Shown here: positions 1,534 to 51,191 of the stretch, piece after piece | How positions within the stretch are numbered: the first letter of the stretch is position 1 | How the letters are laid out: each line of letters begins with the position of its first letter | Assembly (NCBI GenBank): GCA_964410475.1 | Contig: CAYPGH010000001.1 | Span: 1-52,902 of the forward strand | Source of the DNA: an uncultured Candidatus Saccharibacteria bacterium | Lineage (GTDB): Bacteria > Patescibacteriota > Minisyncoccia > Phycocordibacterales > UBA2100 | Reading direction: 5' to 3' | DNA: 52,902 bases | Position numbers and translations under genes: made by a program | The notes under the pieces: model-generated | What the model was told of the DNA's origin: nothing | The model's database searches: none | Seen by the model: the letters and a program-made list of their open reading frames with translations, nothing else

Positions 1534-3501
1534 ATGCGAGTAGTCTCATTTTCAACAGATTGGAGCGTATTTGATGAGCATAGCGCTGTTGCGCGGCGAC
1601 AGCGTATGCAGGCATCAACGCTTGAACGATTGGAAGTATTCGTTCCGCACGGTCCAAAGCAGATAGCACATCTTGCGCCGAACGCTACGATAAGAGGGTT
1701 TGGTCTCGGTAGAACACTTGGTGCGCTACGCGCCATTCTTGCCGCACTTCGTTTGCCGCAACCGGATATAGTTTCCGCACAAGACCCATTTCTTATTGGC
1801 CTTACTGCGTGGTGCGCCGCACGACTGTCGGGTGCCAAACTGCATGTCCAAGTGCATACCGATGTTTTTTCACCGGGGTTCTCCGCACACTCCAGGAAGA
1901 ATCGTCTTTTTGTGGTCCTCGCACGTTTCATTTTGCGCCGCGCTGATGCCGTCCGCGTCGTTTCAGAACGCATCAAAGAAACGCTTAAGCCGCTTCATCT
2001 CACCACTCCAGTATCAGTATTACCCGTGTTTGTTGATGGGGAAGCAATTACTCGCGCAGAAGCAATAGACAAGAAAAAAGAATTTCCCGATTTTCAAAAA
2101 CTCGTACTAGTCGTCTCTCGGCTTGAGCCGGAGAAAAATGTAGCTGCCGCAATACGGGCATTCTTCCAAATCCAAAAGGCGCAAGTCGGGGCCGGTTTGG
2201 TTATCGTAGGGAGTGGAAGCGAGGGAGCGGCACTTTATGAGCTTGCTCAAGAGCTTGGGATTGAGAAGCAAATTGTATTTGTGGGAGCCAGGGATTCACT
2301 TCCGTTTTATAAAGTAGCGGATCTTCTGCTGGTCACCTCTGAGTTTGAAGGGTACGGCATGGTTATTGTGGAGGCGCTCGTCGCCGGATGCCCTGTGGTT
2401 TCCTATGATGTCGGTGTTGCTCGGGAGGCGGGAGCTATCCTTGCGTCTCCGGAGGAACTTCCTTCGCGCGCGATCGCGGTTCTCTCCGAAGGTCGGCGCG
2501 GCTCTCTTTCATTTCCGCTTCTTTCAGAATCAGAATATAGAGACATGTGGCGCGCCGAGATAGGGGGAGCGTTGGCAGAAGGTTCGATGAGTTCTGTTGC
2601 GCAGAAGGAAAAAGTGAAATCTCGCATTGGCTACATCGGGCAAGGCTTCATCGGCAAGAATTATGCCGATGACCTGGAACGCCGCGGATTTGAGGTAGTT
2701 CGGTATGCTCTTGAAGAGCCGTATCGTGCGAACAAAGAGAAAATACGCGATTGCGATATCGTATTCATTGCGGTACCGACGCCGACGACTCCTGAGAAGT
2801 TTGACGACAGCATTGTTCGGAGTGCACTTTCGCTGGTCGGAAAAGGAGAGACGGCAGTCGTTAAGTCTACACTCTTGCCGGGAACCACAGCACAATTGCA
2901 AAAGGCGTATCCGGATATCTTTGTGATGCACTCGCCGGAATTCTTGCGCGAGGCGACGGCTGCGTTTGACGCGTCGCATCCTGATAGGAATATCATCGGT
3001 ATCGCAAATGACACACCTGAAGCGCGACGCAAAGCCGGAGAAGTACTTGCGGTCTTGCCAGCTTCGCCGTTTAGTCTTGTGTGCTCTTCTCTCGAGGCGG
3101 AGATAGTCAAATACGCGGGGAACAGTTGGCTGTATGTAAAGGTCGTGTATATCAACATGCTCTATGATCTCGTACAGAAGCTCGATGGAAACTATGATGT
3201 TGTCCGCGACGCACTTGCCGCCGATCCGCGCGTCGGCCGCTCGCACCTGGATCCCGTGCATCAAAGCGGGCACGGGGGTAAACCCGCGCGTGGGGCCGGA
3301 GGCCACTGTCTTATCAAGGATTTCGAGGCATTGCGGCGTTTGTATGAAGAGAAGGTGGCCGACGAATATGGTGCGCGAGTATTTGACACGTTAGCTGCAA
3401 AAAACCTTGACCTTCTCCTATCAAGCGGCAAGGATATTGATCTTCTAAAGGGTGTATATGGAGAAGATGTGGAGAAGGAGAAAAAGAATCTTCTTGAGTG
3501 A
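1534..3501 (+). CDS. Fusion protein: GT4 glycosyltransferase (N-terminal, about 360 aa) plus a short UDP-glucose/GDP-mannose dehydrogenase-family domain (C-terminal, about 290 aa)
   Basis: One uninterrupted 655-aa ORF. The N-terminal half has the GT4 E-x7-E region (SEFEGYGMVIVEAL). The C-terminal half has IGYIGQGFIGKN (Rossmann fold), AVPTPT, SPEFLREATA and GAGGHCLIKD (catalytic Cys motif of UGDH-type enzymes). Confidence 0.75.
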   Translation: MRVVSFSTDWSVFDEHSAVARRQRMQASTLERLEVFVPHGPKQIAHLAPNATIRGFGLGRTLGALRAILAALRLPQPDIVSAQDPFLIGLTAWCAARLSGAKLHVQVHTDVFSPGFSAHSRKNRLFVVLARFILRRADAVRVVSERIKETLKPLHLTTPVSVLPVFVDGEAITRAEAIDKKKEFPDFQKLVLVVSRLEPEKNVAAAIRAFFQIQKAQVGAGLVIVGSGSEGAALYELAQELGIEKQIVFVGARDSLPFYKVADLLLVTSEFEGYGMVIVEALVAGCPVVSYDVGVAREAGAILASPEELPSRAIAVLSEGRRGSLSFPLLSESEYRDMWRAEIGGALAEGSMSSVAQKEKVKSRIGYIGQGFIGKNYADDLERRGFEVVRYALEEPYRANKEKIRDCDIVFIAVPTPTTPEKFDDSIVRSALSLVGKGETAVVKSTLLPGTTAQLQKAYPDIFVMHSPEFLREATAAFDASHPDRNIIGIANDTPEARRKAGEVLAVLPASPFSLVCSSLEAEIVKYAGNSWLYVKVVYINMLYDLVQKLDGNYDVVRDALAADPRVGRSHLDPVHQSGHGGKPARGAGGHCLIKDFEALRRLYEEKVADEYGARVFDTLAAKNLDLLLSSGKDIDLLKGVYGEDVEKEKKNLLE

Positions 3502-46731: not shown

Positions 46732-46740
46732 ACTTCATAT

Positions 46741-46890
46741 TTCTTAACGGGGTGGTACCCCGTTAGAAACAGGAAGCGAAGCTTGCCGTCTGAAAATTAC
46801 GGAAGGTGAACGATGTACCTCTTTATATTCGAGCAAGAATCCTAATCGCGCAATAACTTCCGCAGCTTCTAATGGGGTGGTACAATCCCG
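46741..46890 (-). repeat. Long-stem element (LSE) copy E (diverged), flanked by half-sites
   Basis: Arms CCCCGTTAGAAAC (46758-46770) and GCTTCTAATGGGG (46865-46877), with 2 non-Watson-Crick positions. The second stem GGAAG/CTTCC is conserved. There is an extra palindrome AACGGGGT-GGT-ACCCCGTT at 46746-46764. Confidence 0.7.
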
Positions 46891-47034: not shown

Positions 47035-49389
47035 ATGACGCTTGAGAAAGTCTTGCGATGGATCGCGTTGGGAGGGATTTTTGCTCTCCCATTCATCGTT
47101 TTTCTTGTTTCCACATCACTTTTTTTCCCTTTTATTACGGCGAAGAACTTCGCTTTTCGACTCATCATTGAGGTGATAACAGGTGCATGGTTGGCGCTCG
47201 CACTCGTTAATTCCACGTATCGTCCTCGAAGGCAATGGCTTTTAGGAACATTTGCTGTCTTTGTCATTATCATCGCACTTGCGGACGCCTTTGGCGCGAA
47301 TCCGTTCAAGAGTTTCTGGAGTAACTATGAGCGCATGGATGGATGGATAACGCTCGCACACCTCTTCCTTTACGTTGTTGTCTCGTCGGTGATGCTTTCG
47401 ACGGAAAAATTGTGGCGCGCATTCTTTAGAGTATCTCTTGCCGTTTCGGCAGTTGTTGGTGCGCATGCACTCCTCCAGCTCTTCGGTGTCGCAAGTTTGA
47501 ACCCGGGATTTTCTTCAGAAACTCGTCTTGACGCTACGTTTGGGAACCCAATATATCTCGCGTCTTACATGCTCTTTCACGTCTTCATTGCGGCGCTTCT
47601 CATGGCGCATTCAGGCAAAGAGAAGTGGGACAAGGTTGAACGATATGTTGTCGGAGGAATCTTTGCAGGAGCGGCTATTTTGGGACTTAGTGTCTTTGGC
47701 AAAACAGGTCTAACTTTTTATGCGTTTCTAATAATTCTAGGCACTATTGGAGGGTTCCTGCTTTATAAACGGAAGATGTATCTTCTTGCCTTCATTCTCA
47801 TACTCGACGCGGTCATCCTCTTTCTTACGGGGACACGGGGCACGATACTGGGCTTTACCGGTGGAGTCATACTTGCGGCATCTCTTTTTGCTCTGTTTGC
47901 ACGCGATTACTCAAAGCGTGCGCGTCAATCTGCCGCAGGAGTCGTTGTAATAATTCTCGTTCTTGCCGGAGGGTTGTATTTCGTGAGAGATCAGTCGTGG
48001 GTGCGAGATACACCCGTTCTCGGTCGCATAGTTACGATATCGATCACAGAGTCAACAGCGAAAGCGCGCATCATGAACTGGGGAGTGGCCTGGCAGGGAG
48101 TGAAAGAGAGACCTCTTTTGGGCTGGGGACAGGAGAATTTCGCGATTGTATTCAACAAGTACTACAACCCTCAGATGTATTCGCAGGAACAATGGTTTGA
48201 TCGAGTTCATAATATTATCTTCGATTGGCTTGTGGCGGGTGGAGCTCTTGGACTTCTTGCGTATCTGTCGCTTTTCGTGCTTTCTCTCTGGTATATCTGG
48301 CGACGAGGTGTAGGGGAAAGCGCTTTTACCGTTAGTGAAGGCAGTATTTTGACGGGCCTTCTAGCCGCCTACTTCTTTCATAATCTCTTTGTGTTCGACA
48401 ATGTCATGAGCTATTTCTTTTTCGCATCCGTGCTCGCATTTGTTTCGTTCCGCGCTGGAGAACATGCGAACAGACCTCGTCTCATTACGGCGTCGCTTTT
48501 CCCACTTCGTTCCCTGCCTTTTATTTCAGCGATCATTGCAGTTTCCGTGTTTGGGGTGGTGTGGTTTGCGAACACTAATCCGCTGGCATCGAACAAAGCG
48601 CTTTTGCAGGCGCTGGCTCCGCACTCGGAGGGTCTTCTTAAGAACCTCGATTACTTCGAGAAAGCGATTTCGTATAACACTCTGGGGAACCAGGAAGCTC
48701 GTGAACAGCTCGCGCAGGCCGCTATGCAAATTGCGCGCCGTGAAGAAGTTCCCATTGAAACGAAACAGAAATTTCTGGAAGCCGCGGCGCGAGAGCTTAC
48801 TCTTCAATCCGAAGCGTCTCCACTCGACCCGCGACCTCTGTTATTTCTCGGCGTTCTCTTGAATACCTACGGACTCTACACTGAAGCGGAGCCAATTCTG
48901 GCACGCGCGTACGCGCTCTCGCCCACCAAGCAGTCAATTATTCTCGAAGTTGCCGCGAATGCGATAGCGCGCGATGATATCGAAACAGCTTTGTCTTTCT
49001 ATAAAGAGGCATATGAGTTAGCGCCCAATTTTACAGACGCACATATACTTTACGCTACGGTCGCCATTCATGCGAAGCAGGACAAATTGGCCGAAGAACT
49101 TCTCACACCGCTTATTGCTGCGGGCGATGCAACCGATAAACGTATCGCTTCAGCATATGCTTCACGCGAGCGTTACGACAAAATCGTATCTATCTGGGAA
49201 GCTCATTTACAAAAGAATCCGGAGGATATTCAAGCGCGCTTCACGCTCGCCTCTGCATACTATGCGGCAGGGAACGCACAGCGTGCGATAGAACAGCTTG
49301 AGATCGCCGCGAGAGCAAATCCATCTTATAAGGAACAGGCTGAAACACTTATGCGCGATATCAGGTCAGGCGCTCTGCGCATCGAGTAA
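47035..49389 (+). CDS. O-antigen ligase/polymerase-like (Wzy_C) membrane protein with a C-terminal TPR domain
   Basis: 784 aa with more than 10 TM segments. Contains RPLLGWGQENF and VHNIIFDWLVAGGALGLL (O-antigen ligase-like loop). The C-terminal 250 aa or so is TPR-like (AYALSP, AYELAPNF, ARANPSY). Confidence 0.7.
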   Translation: MTLEKVLRWIALGGIFALPFIVFLVSTSLFFPFITAKNFAFRLIIEVITGAWLALALVNSTYRPRRQWLLGTFAVFVIIIALADAFGANPFKSFWSNYERMDGWITLAHLFLYVVVSSVMLSTEKLWRAFFRVSLAVSAVVGAHALLQLFGVASLNPGFSSETRLDATFGNPIYLASYMLFHVFIAALLMAHSGKEKWDKVERYVVGGIFAGAAILGLSVFGKTGLTFYAFLIILGTIGGFLLYKRKMYLLAFILILDAVILFLTGTRGTILGFTGGVILAASLFALFARDYSKRARQSAAGVVVIILVLAGGLYFVRDQSWVRDTPVLGRIVTISITESTAKARIMNWGVAWQGVKERPLLGWGQENFAIVFNKYYNPQMYSQEQWFDRVHNIIFDWLVAGGALGLLAYLSLFVLSLWYIWRRGVGESAFTVSEGSILTGLLAAYFFHNLFVFDNVMSYFFFASVLAFVSFRAGEHANRPRLITASLFPLRSLPFISAIIAVSVFGVVWFANTNPLASNKALLQALAPHSEGLLKNLDYFEKAISYNTLGNQEAREQLAQAAMQIARREEVPIETKQKFLEAAARELTLQSEASPLDPRPLLFLGVLLNTYGLYTEAEPILARAYALSPTKQSIILEVAANAIARDDIETALSFYKEAYELAPNFTDAHILYATVAIHAKQDKLAEELLTPLIAAGDATDKRIASAYASRERYDKIVSIWEAHLQKNPEDIQARFTLASAYYAAGNAQRAIEQLEIAARANPSYKEQAETLMRDIRSGALRIE

Positions 49390-49475
49390 ACCACAGCAAG
49401 CGCGTAACGTGTTGCCGTACTACTATTTGTATTGTGAGTACCACTAATCGTGTGGCTCTCGAAAGGAATGTCACC

Positions 49476-49510
49476 GAACACCGCCCTCCGGGCGGTGTTT
49501 CAGTTTGTTG
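49476..49510 (+). terminator. Candidate intrinsic terminator
   Basis: AACACCGCCC-TCC-GGGCGGTGTT is a 10-bp GC-rich stem, followed by TTCAGTTTGTT. It lies 87 nt after the stop at 49389. Confidence 0.55.
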
Positions 49511-49627
49511 GCGGCGTAGAACGAGAGTGCGTAGATATGCTCCGTGGGTGGATGACCTGACGTGCGGAGAAAAGAGGTATTGAGTAAAGAGAGAGTAAGA
49601 TATCGGAAATAGTAAACAAATTTCTAT

Positions 49628-50289
49628 TTCCCAAAGTCTAGCCGACCGGCTAGGATATGGGATAATAAGAAGACATGGGAAAGATCGAAGAAAAAGCAAA
49701 GCAAAAAACGAAGAAGAATGCACACGTACAAGATGCAATTCTTCTATACTTTCGCACCGTAGGAGCAATGGCGGCCGTTATACTTTCACCTAATCCGACC
49801 ATGTACAAACTCTTGCGTCAGATGGATCCTAATCCTTCAGGAAAGCGGAATGCCACGCATCGCATCAGAGAAGCTGCAAAACGCCTTGAGGCAGGTGGTC
49901 TCTTGAAGCGGGATCACAAAGGTCAATTTGTTCTCACCAGGAAAGGAGAACAGCGATCTGTCTTTTTAGAGAGCATGCAGAACATGCACATGATGAAACC
50001 GCACCATTGGGACGAGAAGTGGCGTATTGTTATTTTTGACGTGTGGGAGCGCAGGCGCGGGATACGTCAGCGACTGCGGGCGCTTCTTGAGAAGGCAGGG
50101 TTTGTGCGTCTGCAAGACAGCGTATGGGTGTATCCGTATCCATGCGAGGAATTTGTGGCATTTATACGCGCTGACCTACGGCTTGGCCCGGGCATGCTCT
50201 ATATCATTGCAGAAGAGATAGAACATGACCGGCATTTGAAGGAACATTTCGGCATCCCAATATCATGACGGTCGGCTAGACTTTGGGAA
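49628..50289. repeat. 21-bp perfect inverted repeats bracketing a single gene
   Basis: TTCCCAAAGTCTAGCCGACCG (49628-49648) is the exact reverse complement of CGGTCGGCTAGACTTTGGGAA (50269-50289). The right arm begins at the nucleotide after the TGA stop (50266-50268). Confidence 0.9.
49675..50268 (+). CDS. Winged-helix + Cas2-fold (PaaX-like C-terminal) domain protein
   Basis: The N-terminal part ends in a wHTH-like LLKRDHKGQFVLTRKGEQ. The C-terminal WRIVIFDVWERRRGIRQRLRALLEKAGFVRLQDSVWVYPYP follows the beta-alpha-beta pattern of Cas2/PaaX C-domains. Confidence 0.55.
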   Translation: MGKIEEKAKQKTKKNAHVQDAILLYFRTVGAMAAVILSPNPTMYKLLRQMDPNPSGKRNATHRIREAAKRLEAGGLLKRDHKGQFVLTRKGEQRSVFLESMQNMHMMKPHHWDEKWRIVIFDVWERRRGIRQRLRALLEKAGFVRLQDSVWVYPYPCEEFVAFIRADLRLGPGMLYIIAEEIEHDRHLKEHFGIPIS

Positions 50290-50609
50290 TCGTTTATTGT
50301 AGAGCGGGAGATTTTTCCGAAGCGAGGCAATGGGGATGAATGGCGCGTAGAATTTGAAGCGGCCTGTTTTATTCAAAGCGCAGAATTCACCGACAGCTTG
50401 GCCGTTAGTTTATTTTTTGATATCCCGCATCTCGTTTTTTTCTTTATTTTTTTTTGCATGCAATTTTGTCTTTTAGTTATCCACACATGCGCGCGTAAAA
50501 ACACTTATGCGCACATATGAATGCAATAATTAAAAAGTAAAACGCATCTTCGCATGTTTGTGCGCAAGTGCGGGTCGAGTTAATACAAAAAATATTTCTA
50601 TTTATATCT

Positions 50610-50669
50610 ATGGCAAAGAAACGAAAGACAGCAAAGAAGAAGAAGGCGACGAAAAAGAAGCGCCGCTAG
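50610..50669 (+). CDS. Candidate 19-aa polybasic micro-protein
   Basis: My translation is MAKKRKTAKKKKATKKKRR, then TAG, followed within 26 nt by a strong intrinsic terminator. No homology evidence; it is too short for the ORF track. Confidence 0.3.
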   Translation: MAKKRKTAKKKKATKKKRR

Positions 50670-50694
50670 CGCCTCTTCTCTCGAATGTTCGAGA

Positions 50695-50729
50695 AAACAC
50701 ATCGCTCTTGATGGGCGATGTGTTTTTTT
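50695..50729 (+). terminator. Intrinsic terminator
   Basis: ACACATCGC (50697-50705) pairs with GCGATGTGT (50715-50723) around a 9-nt loop, running into a T tract that ends at 50729. Confidence 0.75.
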
Positions 50730-51014
50730 ACCCCGTTATAAGCAGAACGCCCCGCGGCTTGCCGCGGAGATGAATGCTAGTCGGGCTTAGCGAACTCGGG
50801 GTTTAATCCATGCGCAGAATTCCCCGACAGCTTGGCTGCGGGGATGAATGCGCATGAGGAAAGGAGGGTCGGGGAAAACGTAGTTTTCCCCGTGGAGGAG
50901 AGCAGAGAGCCTGTAATCAGGCGAACGTTGAGAACCGAGTGGTTCTCAAAATAAAATACCGCGACAGCTTGGCTACGCGGTAGTTTATTGTTCCGCGTGA
51001 GCTTCTAACGGGGT
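50730..51014 (-). repeat. Long-stem element (LSE) copy G, with a large (257-nt) interior
   Basis: ACCCCGTTATAAGC (50730-50743) pairs with GCTTCTAACGGGGT (51001-51014), 14 bp with one mismatch. A 1-nt bulge plus GAAC/GTTC second stem echo the other copies. The interior holds two of the GACAGCTTGGC hairpins. Confidence 0.6.
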
Positions 51015-51120
51015 TTAGTCCCACACCTTTCGTTTTGTAGCTTCGGATTATCGCGATACGATAAGACGAAAGGTGGGGTATTTTATGATAGGATGCCCGA
51101 ACACTAACTCCGCGCTATCA

Positions 51121-51126
51121 TATAAT
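51121..51126 (+). promoter_or_regulatory. Candidate -10 box (TATAAT) upstream of secA
   Basis: TATAAT lies 65 nt upstream of the secA ATG, with a weak -35-like CGAACA 17 nt upstream of it. This is a motif match only. Confidence 0.3.
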
Positions 51127-51191
51127 GCATGTACTACTTTATGACACGCTTAACAATAAGTCTTCACCAAGCGCGAAGTTAGTGTGCTGGT

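Follow-up and report, generated by a model that had tools for sequence, protein, structure and literature searches.

The DNA analysed here (the window) is the 52,902-nt stretch of contig CAYPGH010000001.1 (assembly GCA_964410475.1) from an uncultured Candidatus Saccharibacteria bacterium, and our subject is one of its genes, at 49675-50268 on the forward strand, which lies between two copies of a long palindrome and encodes a short protein related to the repressor PaaX and to Cas2. We call this protein mini-PaaX. On balance, comparative sequence analysis leads us to favour the view that gene and palindromes form a self-bracketed module, in which mini-PaaX, as a dimer, recognises the double-stranded palindrome and represses the gene that encodes it; the module would be gained and lost as a unit, and solo copies of the palindrome would spread in a manner resembling REP elements.

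In the mechanism that we envisage, mini-PaaX would be a PaaX-type repressor cut down to a winged helix and a Cas2-like dimerisation domain, and its dimer would cover one face of a duplex stretch of about 36 bp. Each winged helix would use its recognition helix to read an outer box of the palindrome (TTCCCAWA in the window), at about 11-17 bp from the dyad. The core (GCCG-AC-CGGC in the window), about 4-8 bp from the dyad, would be read by the Arg-rich helix alpha1 of the two Cas2-like domains, and the 4 bp between the two zones would stay unread. Since the upstream site appears to overlap the gene's own -10 region, binding would repress the mini-PaaX gene, and the downstream site would act as a second operator at the 3' border, with looping, a roadblock or an insulator as candidate modes of action. 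Solo copies would arise by copying or insertion and would not represent an ancient regulon. In the literature, we found no paper that joins PaaX or Cas2-like proteins with palindromes of Patescibacteria and thus no published description of a bracketed mini-PaaX.

Two complete palindromic sites bracket the mini-PaaX gene

A repeat search of the window places TTCCCAAAGTCTAGCCGACCG at 49628-49648, and the reverse complement recurs without mismatch at 50269-50289; in 100 dinucleotide-preserving shuffles, 0.00 matches are expected for such a 21-mer inverted pair at ≤3 mismatches. The arms enclose 26 nt followed by a single open reading frame (ORF) of 197 aa, whose TGA abuts the right arm, the next base being the first of the arm. 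The repeat, the 26-nt leader, the single ORF and the position of the right arm had been reported in a preliminary description made from the sequence alone, and they are borne out at exactly those coordinates, as are the local palindrome CTAGCCG-AC-CGGCTAG (49638-49653) and the lack of a target-site duplication at the cassette ends upon inspection of the sequence. The complementarity of the arms runs on to 36 nt at 81% in the repeat finder, because each arm is half of an imperfect palindrome of its own: the 21-bp arm comprises the outer half and the centre of a quasi-palindrome of ~36 bp, centred on CCG-AC-CGG. The gene is therefore flanked by two copies of a 36-bp dyad-symmetric site, one per gene end, and not by a pair of transposon-like ends. 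The features of the locus are as follows.

47035-49389: upstream wzy/TPR gene, an ORF; Wzy_C/TPR domains seen in its orthologue
49476-49500, forward strand: terminator-like hairpin, an 11-pair stem followed by a T-rich tail, 3' of the upstream wzy/TPR gene
49628-49663, unstranded: upstream site, the 36-bp quasi-palindrome TTCCCAAAGTCTAGCCG-AC-CGGCTAGGATATGGGAT; 13 of 17 arm positions symmetric
49650-49666, forward strand: candidate -10 elements TAGGAT (49650-49655) and GATAAT (49661-49666), read from the sequence
49675-50268, forward strand: mini-PaaX gene, 197 aa; winged helix, WDxKW linker and Cas2-like PaaX_M domain
50002-50226, forward strand: region encoding the Cas2-like (PaaX_M) domain, residues 110-184, with D122, E125 and helix alpha1 (125-141), which includes Q132
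50254-50289, unstranded: downstream site, the 36-bp quasi-palindrome ATCCCAATATCATGACG-GT-CGGCTAGACTTTGGGAA; 11 of 17 arm positions symmetric

The terminator-like hairpin ends the upstream wzy/TPR gene, and the mini-PaaX cassette thus needs a promoter of its own. Of the two candidate -10 elements, one sits within the gene-proximal arm of the upstream site and the other at the edge of this arm; an orthologue with 75% identity carries TAGAAT in the corresponding position, 6 nt ahead of its start codon. At the other end, the inner half of the downstream site encodes the last five codons and the TGA of the mini-PaaX gene; this site is identical in the sister genome G021. Scans of the window for Rfam families, tRNAs and tandem repeats gave no matches.

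The protein combines a winged helix with a Cas2-like domain

Residues 110-184 of the window protein match the Pfam model PaaX_M (PF20803, "PaaX central Cas2-like domain") with an E-value of 7.6e-18 (64.8 bits, cut-off 24), and Cas2 models are matched at E-values of 1e-4 to 1e-7. Relatives bear the public names "CRISPR-associated endonuclease Cas2" or "PaaX family regulator" because the score of such proteins exceeds the cut-off of the NCBIfam cas2 model (TIGR01573, 28.3 bits against 24.5 for the window protein); with the PaaX equivalog model TIGR02277, the window protein stays far below the cut-off, at 39.4 bits against 264.55. An AlphaFold2 model, computed with 68 homologues as input (mean pLDDT 82), retrieved E. 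coli PaaX (8a39) as its top Foldseek match (E 8.6e-5), followed by Rv0674 (3kfw) and about 20 Cas2 chains at probabilities of 0.97-1.00. A family profile finds 8a39 and 3kfw by sequence as well, aligning residues 60-119 with residues 56-113 of 8a39 (E 0.007); a phmmer search of the PDB with the single window protein returned only noise. The model predicts an N-terminal winged helix (helix-helix-helix-hairpin) with its recognition helix at about residues 60-73. Pfam's PaaX N-terminal model has no match in the window protein, so the homology of this winged helix to that of PaaX is weak.

There is likewise no match to the PaaX_C effector domain in the protein, which stops at residue 197, a few residues past the Cas2-like domain, and none to Y1_Tnp of Pfam. 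Mini-PaaX is thus a winged helix plus a PaaX_M/Cas2-like domain, devoid of the C-terminal effector domain. Its D122 and E125, at the position of the catalytic Asp of Cas2, are invariant in the family alignment. The domain architecture agrees with what the preliminary description had read from the sequence, a winged-helix N-terminus and a Cas2/PaaX-like C-terminal fold, for which it had proposed a profile search or structure prediction; in both, the C-terminal domain came out as Cas2/PaaX_M-like. Its remark that no CRISPR-Cas system is near also holds, with no Cas1 found in the genome (755 kb in 135 contigs, 82% complete) and no CRISPR or tandem arrays in the window.

The bracket and the promoter geometry recur across the family

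We collected 112 relatives together with their flanks from genomes of the genus, of the order and from species-representative genomes; among the matches listed, the latter hold more than 590 mini-PaaX stretches. Within the genus, the number of copies per genome is patchy and ranges from 0 to 7. Homologous quasi-palindromes of ~34-38 bp lie at both ends of the gene in ~85% of the ~100 relatives in which both flanks are readable, and, as far as these sequences tell, a bracket of homologous sites is a rule of the family. The upstream site ends ≤2 nt from the ATG in 41 of 83 non-redundant loci, and its gene-proximal arm contains a -10-like hexamer in 51% of loci, as compared to 15-23% for the other three half-sites. 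This geometry implies a promoter inside the site and a leaderless or near-leaderless mRNA. Autoregulation through operator half-sites at both ends, one of the readings in the preliminary description, is the best supported of them, with the correction that each end carries a complete palindromic site and not a half-site.

Flanking sites appear to be read as duplex DNA

We then considered whether the palindromes are read as duplex DNA or as hairpins. In a comparison of 64 loci, the outer box (arm positions 1-8) and the core (13-17) agree among the four half-sites, and agreement drops to 45-66% at positions 9-12, which is also where arm-to-arm mismatches concentrate. Approximately 61-65% of the arm mismatches are non-wobble pairs, and G:T mismatches are not in excess over A:C (42 vs 46 upstream, 54 vs 41 downstream), which speaks against selection for an RNA hairpin. 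The upstream site folds moderately as single-stranded DNA (-8.8 kcal/mol, z -3.2) and the downstream site forms a hairpin no better than its shuffles (z -0.7); solo copies are strong hairpin formers (z -7 to -11). Taken together, the clustering of mismatches, the absence of a G:T bias and the weak folding suggest that the flanking sites act as pairs of protein-read half-sites on duplex DNA and not as conserved stems. We infer that mini-PaaX binds this duplex and represses its own gene.

The bases of the sites, numbered from the dyad, were compared with an alignment of 78 non-redundant proteins. The base 4 nt from the dyad shares its highest mutual information with residue 132, a position in helix alpha1 that is Q132 in the window protein, and this residue comes out on top separately in two disjoint classes of sites, CG-RY-CG and ...TA|TA.... 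Where that base is C, residue 132 is something other than D, N or E in 19 of 19 cases; where it is not C, the residue is D, N or E in 47 of 52. In ~7 phylogenetically independent pairs on supported branches, the association stands at ~6 to 0 (median p 0.03). For the bases 4-8 nt from the dyad as a whole, the top columns are 132, 136, 139, 129 and 99, and for the bases 11-17 nt away they are 58, 60, 62, 63, 65, 66 and 68, in the predicted recognition helix (60-73). The two contact zones are about one helical turn apart with unread bases between them, a spacing that fits a dimer touching four successive major grooves on one face of the DNA.

Three paralogs, each with its own palindrome family

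The genome of the window (G000) encodes two paralogs of the window gene, which lies on contig C1: one at C42:151-738 (40% identity) and one on C5 (24% identity). All three proteins match PaaX_M at an E-value of about 1e-17, and each gene sits between copies of its own long palindrome, ACTTGTTTATAAGTCCCG-AC-CGGGACTTATAAACAAGT on C42 and GGTCAGTTTATGAACATATGTTCATAAACTGACC on C5. All 3 multi-copy long-palindrome families with a 0-2-nt spacer in this genome match the 3 mini-PaaX genes one-to-one. Sites in G000 and G021 were sought by half-sites only, scoring the outer box and the core and ignoring the partner arm, so that the search carries no bias toward palindromes. Each family has 2-5 solo copies beyond its flanking pair, and 4-7 copies in all.

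Family A (the window gene): two flanking sites; C51:412-447, a perfect copy; C85:700-735, an imperfect copy between a CYTH-like gene and folA
Family B: two flanking sites; C7:10870 (peptidase gene/purA); C126:175; C50:739 (between the convergent cysS and leuS); C51:3017
Family C: two flanking sites; C13:7877 (maf/metK); C30:3171 (uvrC/carA); C64:1273 (upstream of rpsJ); C77:59

A genome search for further palindrome copies, and for paralogs with repeats of their own, had been proposed in the preliminary description, and both are present.

Several other repeats were seen alongside these families. One family C palindrome, on G000:C30, is interrupted by a gap of 10 N. Two more multi-copy palindrome families are present in G021, ACACAGAGAACCGTTCTCTGTGT and CAGTGAGGTCWGACCTCACTG, each with 4 copies and with no partner gene identified; they are carried by its contigs C9, C37, C54 and C30, C61, C71, C77. 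In the window, the 0.9-kb non-coding stretch between the cassette and secA (50290-51191) contains three copies of a GCGCAGAATTCNCCGACAGCTTGGC-type repeat (D1), which recurs at G000:C42:1-60, just upstream of the second mini-PaaX cassette, and as part of the same dispersed family on G000:C30 at about 3080-3170.

Solo sites appear to behave like insertions

The solo sites have a narrow distribution. Among 26 genomes of the genus with a metK match, the family C site upstream of metK occurs in G000 and G021 only. The perfect 36-bp copy of family A at G000:C51:412-447 lies in frame within tsaD, where it encodes SHNLSGRIDYGN, part of the loop that joins the HMEGH motif to SGGHT. The stretch between these motifs has 53 residues in G000 versus 33, free of any palindrome, in seven other members of the genus; of the 20 extra codons, the palindrome accounts for 12. 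The same tsaD loop contains unrelated palindromes elsewhere in the genus: a perfect one of 36 bp in G023, a perfect one of 38 bp in G006, a third type in G010, G001 and G020, and a fourth in G013. The loop (loci L038-L066) is therefore a hot spot for in-frame long palindromes, with at least 4 unrelated types across species of the genus. The G006 palindrome, CGATACTTCGTTATATAACGAAGTATCG, is present in 5 copies in that genome (L239-L243), two of which carry the symmetric variant ...TTAGTT...AACTAA...; no mini-PaaX gene was detected next to any of the 5.

Solo sites shared by G000 and G021 are 100% conserved within flanks of about 86% identity (C13, C33), and the site upstream of rpsJ differs between the two genomes by two symmetric pairs of changes, with no unpaired change. 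Clean pairs of occupied and empty sites were not found between G000 and G021, all alignable solo sites being common to both; one solo site of G021 has no counterpart in G000 and is located in a messy indel. In the half-site search, 11 of 13 solo loci are perfect palindromes, compared to 1 of 6 flanking sites, and this perfection includes positions that the protein seems not to read. Beyond the 17-nt arms, the solo sites show a weak excess of symmetry (49% vs 38% for flanking sites). Overall, these comparisons suggest that solo sites behave as insertions rather than as an old regulon. In E. coli, template switching within quasipalindromes during replication turns them into perfect palindromes, and it is tempting to speculate that the same process may keep solo copies perfect where no promoter or coding constraint opposes it. 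Alternatively, an enzymatic role of mini-PaaX through D122 and E125 could cause this symmetry.

The cassette is gained and lost at a conserved locus

The synteny of the wzy/TPR gene and secA, between which the cassette lies, is conserved in the genus. Besides G000, the cassette is found there in G021 (99% protein identity) and on the metagenome contig L156 (75%); in G041 (45%), where a contig ends, a fragment of it is seen. In G042, the place is taken by another paralog (38% identity), whose palindrome is of the CTTGTTTATAA type. Other members of the genus, at least 11 of them, have about 390-960 nt between the two genes, with neither a mini-PaaX gene nor a solo palindrome. This presence and absence at a syntenic locus indicates that the gene and both of its sites are gained or lost as a unit. 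The mobile cassette of the preliminary description is upheld in this respect, with the other paralog in G042 as a further point in its favour; it fails in that transposon-like ends and a target duplication are missing.

We also tried a scheme of integration at the dyad, in which the element would bring the inner halves and a palindrome at the target would supply the outer ones. The idea was prompted by the identity of the outer halves in the window (21/21) and by an x-y' ... y-x' pattern on G021:C4. It was rejected, as across the 64 loci the halves that it pairs are no closer than those within a site, and as the empty loci contain no solo palindrome.

Some differences between assemblies at this locus concern the assemblies themselves. 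Opposite window positions 49614-49671, contig C34 of G021 has "ANN" in place of 57 nt that include the upstream palindrome, next to the 99%-identical orthologue; the assembly or scaffolding most likely left a gap at the palindrome. The end of contig C26 in G042 (L280) is a 170-bp near-perfect palindrome, centred on the downstream site of the cassette, in which the 3' end of the gene appears in mirror image; rather than real DNA, this is probably a fold-back introduced in assembly. Farther upstream, positions 1-43989 of the window (sugar and glycosylation genes) have no counterpart in the G021 assembly, and about 10.6 kb of G021:C34 stand opposite 145 nt of G000 (46732-46877). Such differences suggest that the two genomes, at about 89% average nucleotide identity, vary in a surface-polysaccharide island.

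Weighing the autoregulatory module against alternatives

Several points weigh against the self-bracketed, autorepressing module. The case for it consists wholly of comparative sequence analysis. In the window, a consensus promoter scan called no full sigma-70 promoter, and 11 nt separate the upstream site from the ATG, as opposed to the typical abutting geometry. Column 132 was chosen post hoc from the data in which its association was then counted, the shuffle thresholds ignore phylogeny, and the independent pairs number only ~7. A plain repressor would leave unexplained the site between the convergent cysS and leuS, the in-frame site in tsaD, and copy numbers that vary from 0 to 7 within one genus. 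Binding alone would likewise not account for perfect symmetry of the solo sites at positions that seem unread, and the invariant D122 and E125 would be needless in a domain that served purely for dimerisation and binding, which leaves room for an enzymatic role.

A more speculative reading, which we entertain only tentatively, is that of a selfish, co-evolving pair. Helix alpha1 of the Cas2 fold and the winged helix would read the bases, and protein and palindrome together would seed perfect copies of the site, even in frame in essential genes. The seeding might proceed through the conserved acidic centre or through hairpin-driven switching of replication, and the whole would amount to a REP/RAYT-like lifestyle on an unrelated protein, widespread in Patescibacteria.

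We regard as unlikely, if deserving of a hearing, a selfish system closer to REP/RAYT in its mechanics, in which the protein would recognise single-stranded hairpins or cruciforms and its Cas2-like domain would cut or join them, multiplying the solos and moving the cassette. A gene between its repeats with dispersed solo copies is the REP/RAYT layout, and in the sister genome G021 two ACCTCCCGAGGTTTAACCTCGGGAGGT palindromes enclose a genuine Y1_Tnp gene. The hairpin-forming capacity of the solo copies, the two symmetric change pairs at the orthologous rpsJ site, the in-frame insertions in tsaD, the lineage-specific solo sites, the patchy copy number and the invariant acidic residues at the Cas2 active-site position are all in line with such a system. 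The flanking sites, however, are poor hairpins whose mismatches are mostly non-wobble and fall in a fixed middle segment, as expected of duplex half-sites, and the covariation falls on a winged-helix recognition helix, a reader of the duplex major groove. Moreover, each family has only 4-7 copies instead of tens to hundreds, the symmetry of the solos could be obtained without an enzyme by the template switching mentioned above, and we know of no nuclease activity in PaaX_M domains.

It is improbable that the 21-bp repeats are the terminal repeats of a transposon-like cassette, moved in trans by some transposase with the PaaX-like gene as cargo. The perfect identity of the outer halves in the window would suit this idea, as would the finding that genomes either have or lack the unit at a syntenic locus, and the different paralog in the same intergenic region of G042. 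In addition, a tract of 2 kb around the cassette (48385-50400) matches G021 at 96-100% identity, and the sequence to its left and right at 81-91%; we give this little weight, because about 10% of the aligned genome is ≥98% identical to G021. Across the 64 loci, by contrast, the outer halves (13.6 of 17 positions) are no closer than the halves within a site (13.9-14.2), the inner halves match at 13.3, and the two sites are closest when compared as direct copies (14.4). Neither a target-site duplication nor, at the empty loci, a solo palindrome or scar is seen. Finally, the repeats covary with the protein, and the gene is thus the partner of its repeats and not cargo, or the passenger that the preliminary description had considered.

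Two further readings from that description have little left to recommend them. That site-specific recombination between the inverted 21-mers flips the gene is very unlikely: the perfect inverted repeat itself is all that speaks for an invertible segment, and against it stand a single orientation relative to wzy/TPR and secA in four related assemblies (G000, G021, the 75%-identical contig and G042), the absence of a recombinase gene among the nearby ORFs of the window, sites that are on average direct copies, a central dinucleotide of mixed orientation across relatives (about 17 direct vs 11 inverted), and a flip that would separate the gene from nothing, because the promoter appears to be inside the segment's own end. 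An RNA-level role, with the arms pairing the 5' and 3' ends of the mRNA or the palindromes acting as hairpins for termination or stability, is just as unlikely: the 21 nt of perfect complementarity and the position of the downstream site at the 3' end of the gene would allow it, but the upstream site overlaps the likely promoter, with the -10 inside it, and ends at the ATG in half of the relatives, so that the left arm would be mostly untranscribed; a terminator precedes the cassette, no T-run follows the downstream site, which folds no better than shuffles, and the arm mismatches have no sense-strand G:U bias.

Relation to known systems and significance

In E. coli and Pseudomonas, PaaX is a repressor that responds to phenylacetyl-CoA (PDB 8A39, 3L09; Rv0674, 3KFW). 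Mini-PaaX shares with PaaX the N-terminal winged helix, the linker (WDGKW in PaaX) and the Cas2-like middle domain. E. coli PaaX binds TGATTC-N27-GAATCA, a spaced palindrome of 39 bp, and represses its own promoter by steric hindrance (PMC9493321). The mini-PaaX site is a long spaced palindrome as well, at about 36 bp, and own-promoter repression, shown for PaaX, would be a further likeness. In contrast to PaaX, mini-PaaX has no C-terminal effector domain and hence no site for a ligand of the phenylacetyl-CoA type; no paa genes are near it (the neighbours are the wzy/TPR gene and secA), and its solo sites adjoin housekeeping genes. With TIGR02277 far below its cut-off in addition, mini-PaaX is not a PaaX equivalog. 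It also differs in the centre of its site, where the sequence is likewise specific and varies in concert with alpha1 of the Cas2-like domain, in having sites at both gene ends and dispersed copies, even in frame in coding DNA, and in its many fast-diverging paralogs per genome, each with a site of its own.

REP elements with RAYT genes (REPINs/BIMEs), reportedly described by Nunvar in 2010, Bertels and Rainey in 2011 and Ton-Hoang in 2012, likewise pair a single gene between palindromic repeat copies with the same repeat scattered through the genome, each paralog having its own repeat family and a patchy occurrence among relatives. Mini-PaaX, however, is a winged helix plus a Cas2 fold and not an HUH/Y1 transposase, its repeats look duplex-read and number 4-7 per family, and its mobility is putative. 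A classical system of this type seems to coexist with the mini-PaaX modules. In G021, an IS200/RAYT-like Y1_Tnp gene (C27:2377-3139, L093; HVHILL motif, Pfam E 4.6e-5) lies between two copies of ACCTCCCGAGGTTTAACCTCGGGAGGT, a palindrome with about 7 copies in that genome and two seen in G000 (C38:4320, C57:4027), and G000 has two Y1_Tnp genes (C114:620-955, C37:4728-5075).

With Cas2 and the solo Cas2-like nucleases of VapD type, mini-PaaX shares the ferredoxin-like Cas2 fold, the conserved Asp at the end of beta1 and a QxSVW strand. Unlike them, it is fused to a winged helix, its 82%-complete genome has no cas1 and its window no CRISPR array, and the covariation suggests base-specific reading of DNA by alpha1, which to our knowledge is not a property of Cas2. 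The palindrome in tsaD, in turn, recalls the Rickettsia palindromic elements (RPE), which Ogata and colleagues are said to have described in 2000 as inserting in frame into protein genes. In both, a palindromic repeat stands in frame, here in a permissive loop of the essential protein TsaD. The mini-PaaX repeat is 36 bp long versus about 100-150 bp for RPE, is tied to a cognate protein gene and belongs to a different lineage.

For the genomes of Patescibacteria, these results mean that the label "CRISPR-associated endonuclease Cas2" is misleading where CRISPR is absent and inflates counts of cas genes. Because the mini-PaaX module is very common, it accounts for a considerable part of the long palindromes, the contig breaks and the strange in-frame insertions of these very small genomes. 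Should base reading by alpha1 of the Cas2-like domain prove real, it would be a new use of the Cas2 fold in DNA recognition, with a simple residue-to-base rule. And if the palindromes spread with the help of the protein, the module would represent a second, independent invention of the REP/RAYT lifestyle.

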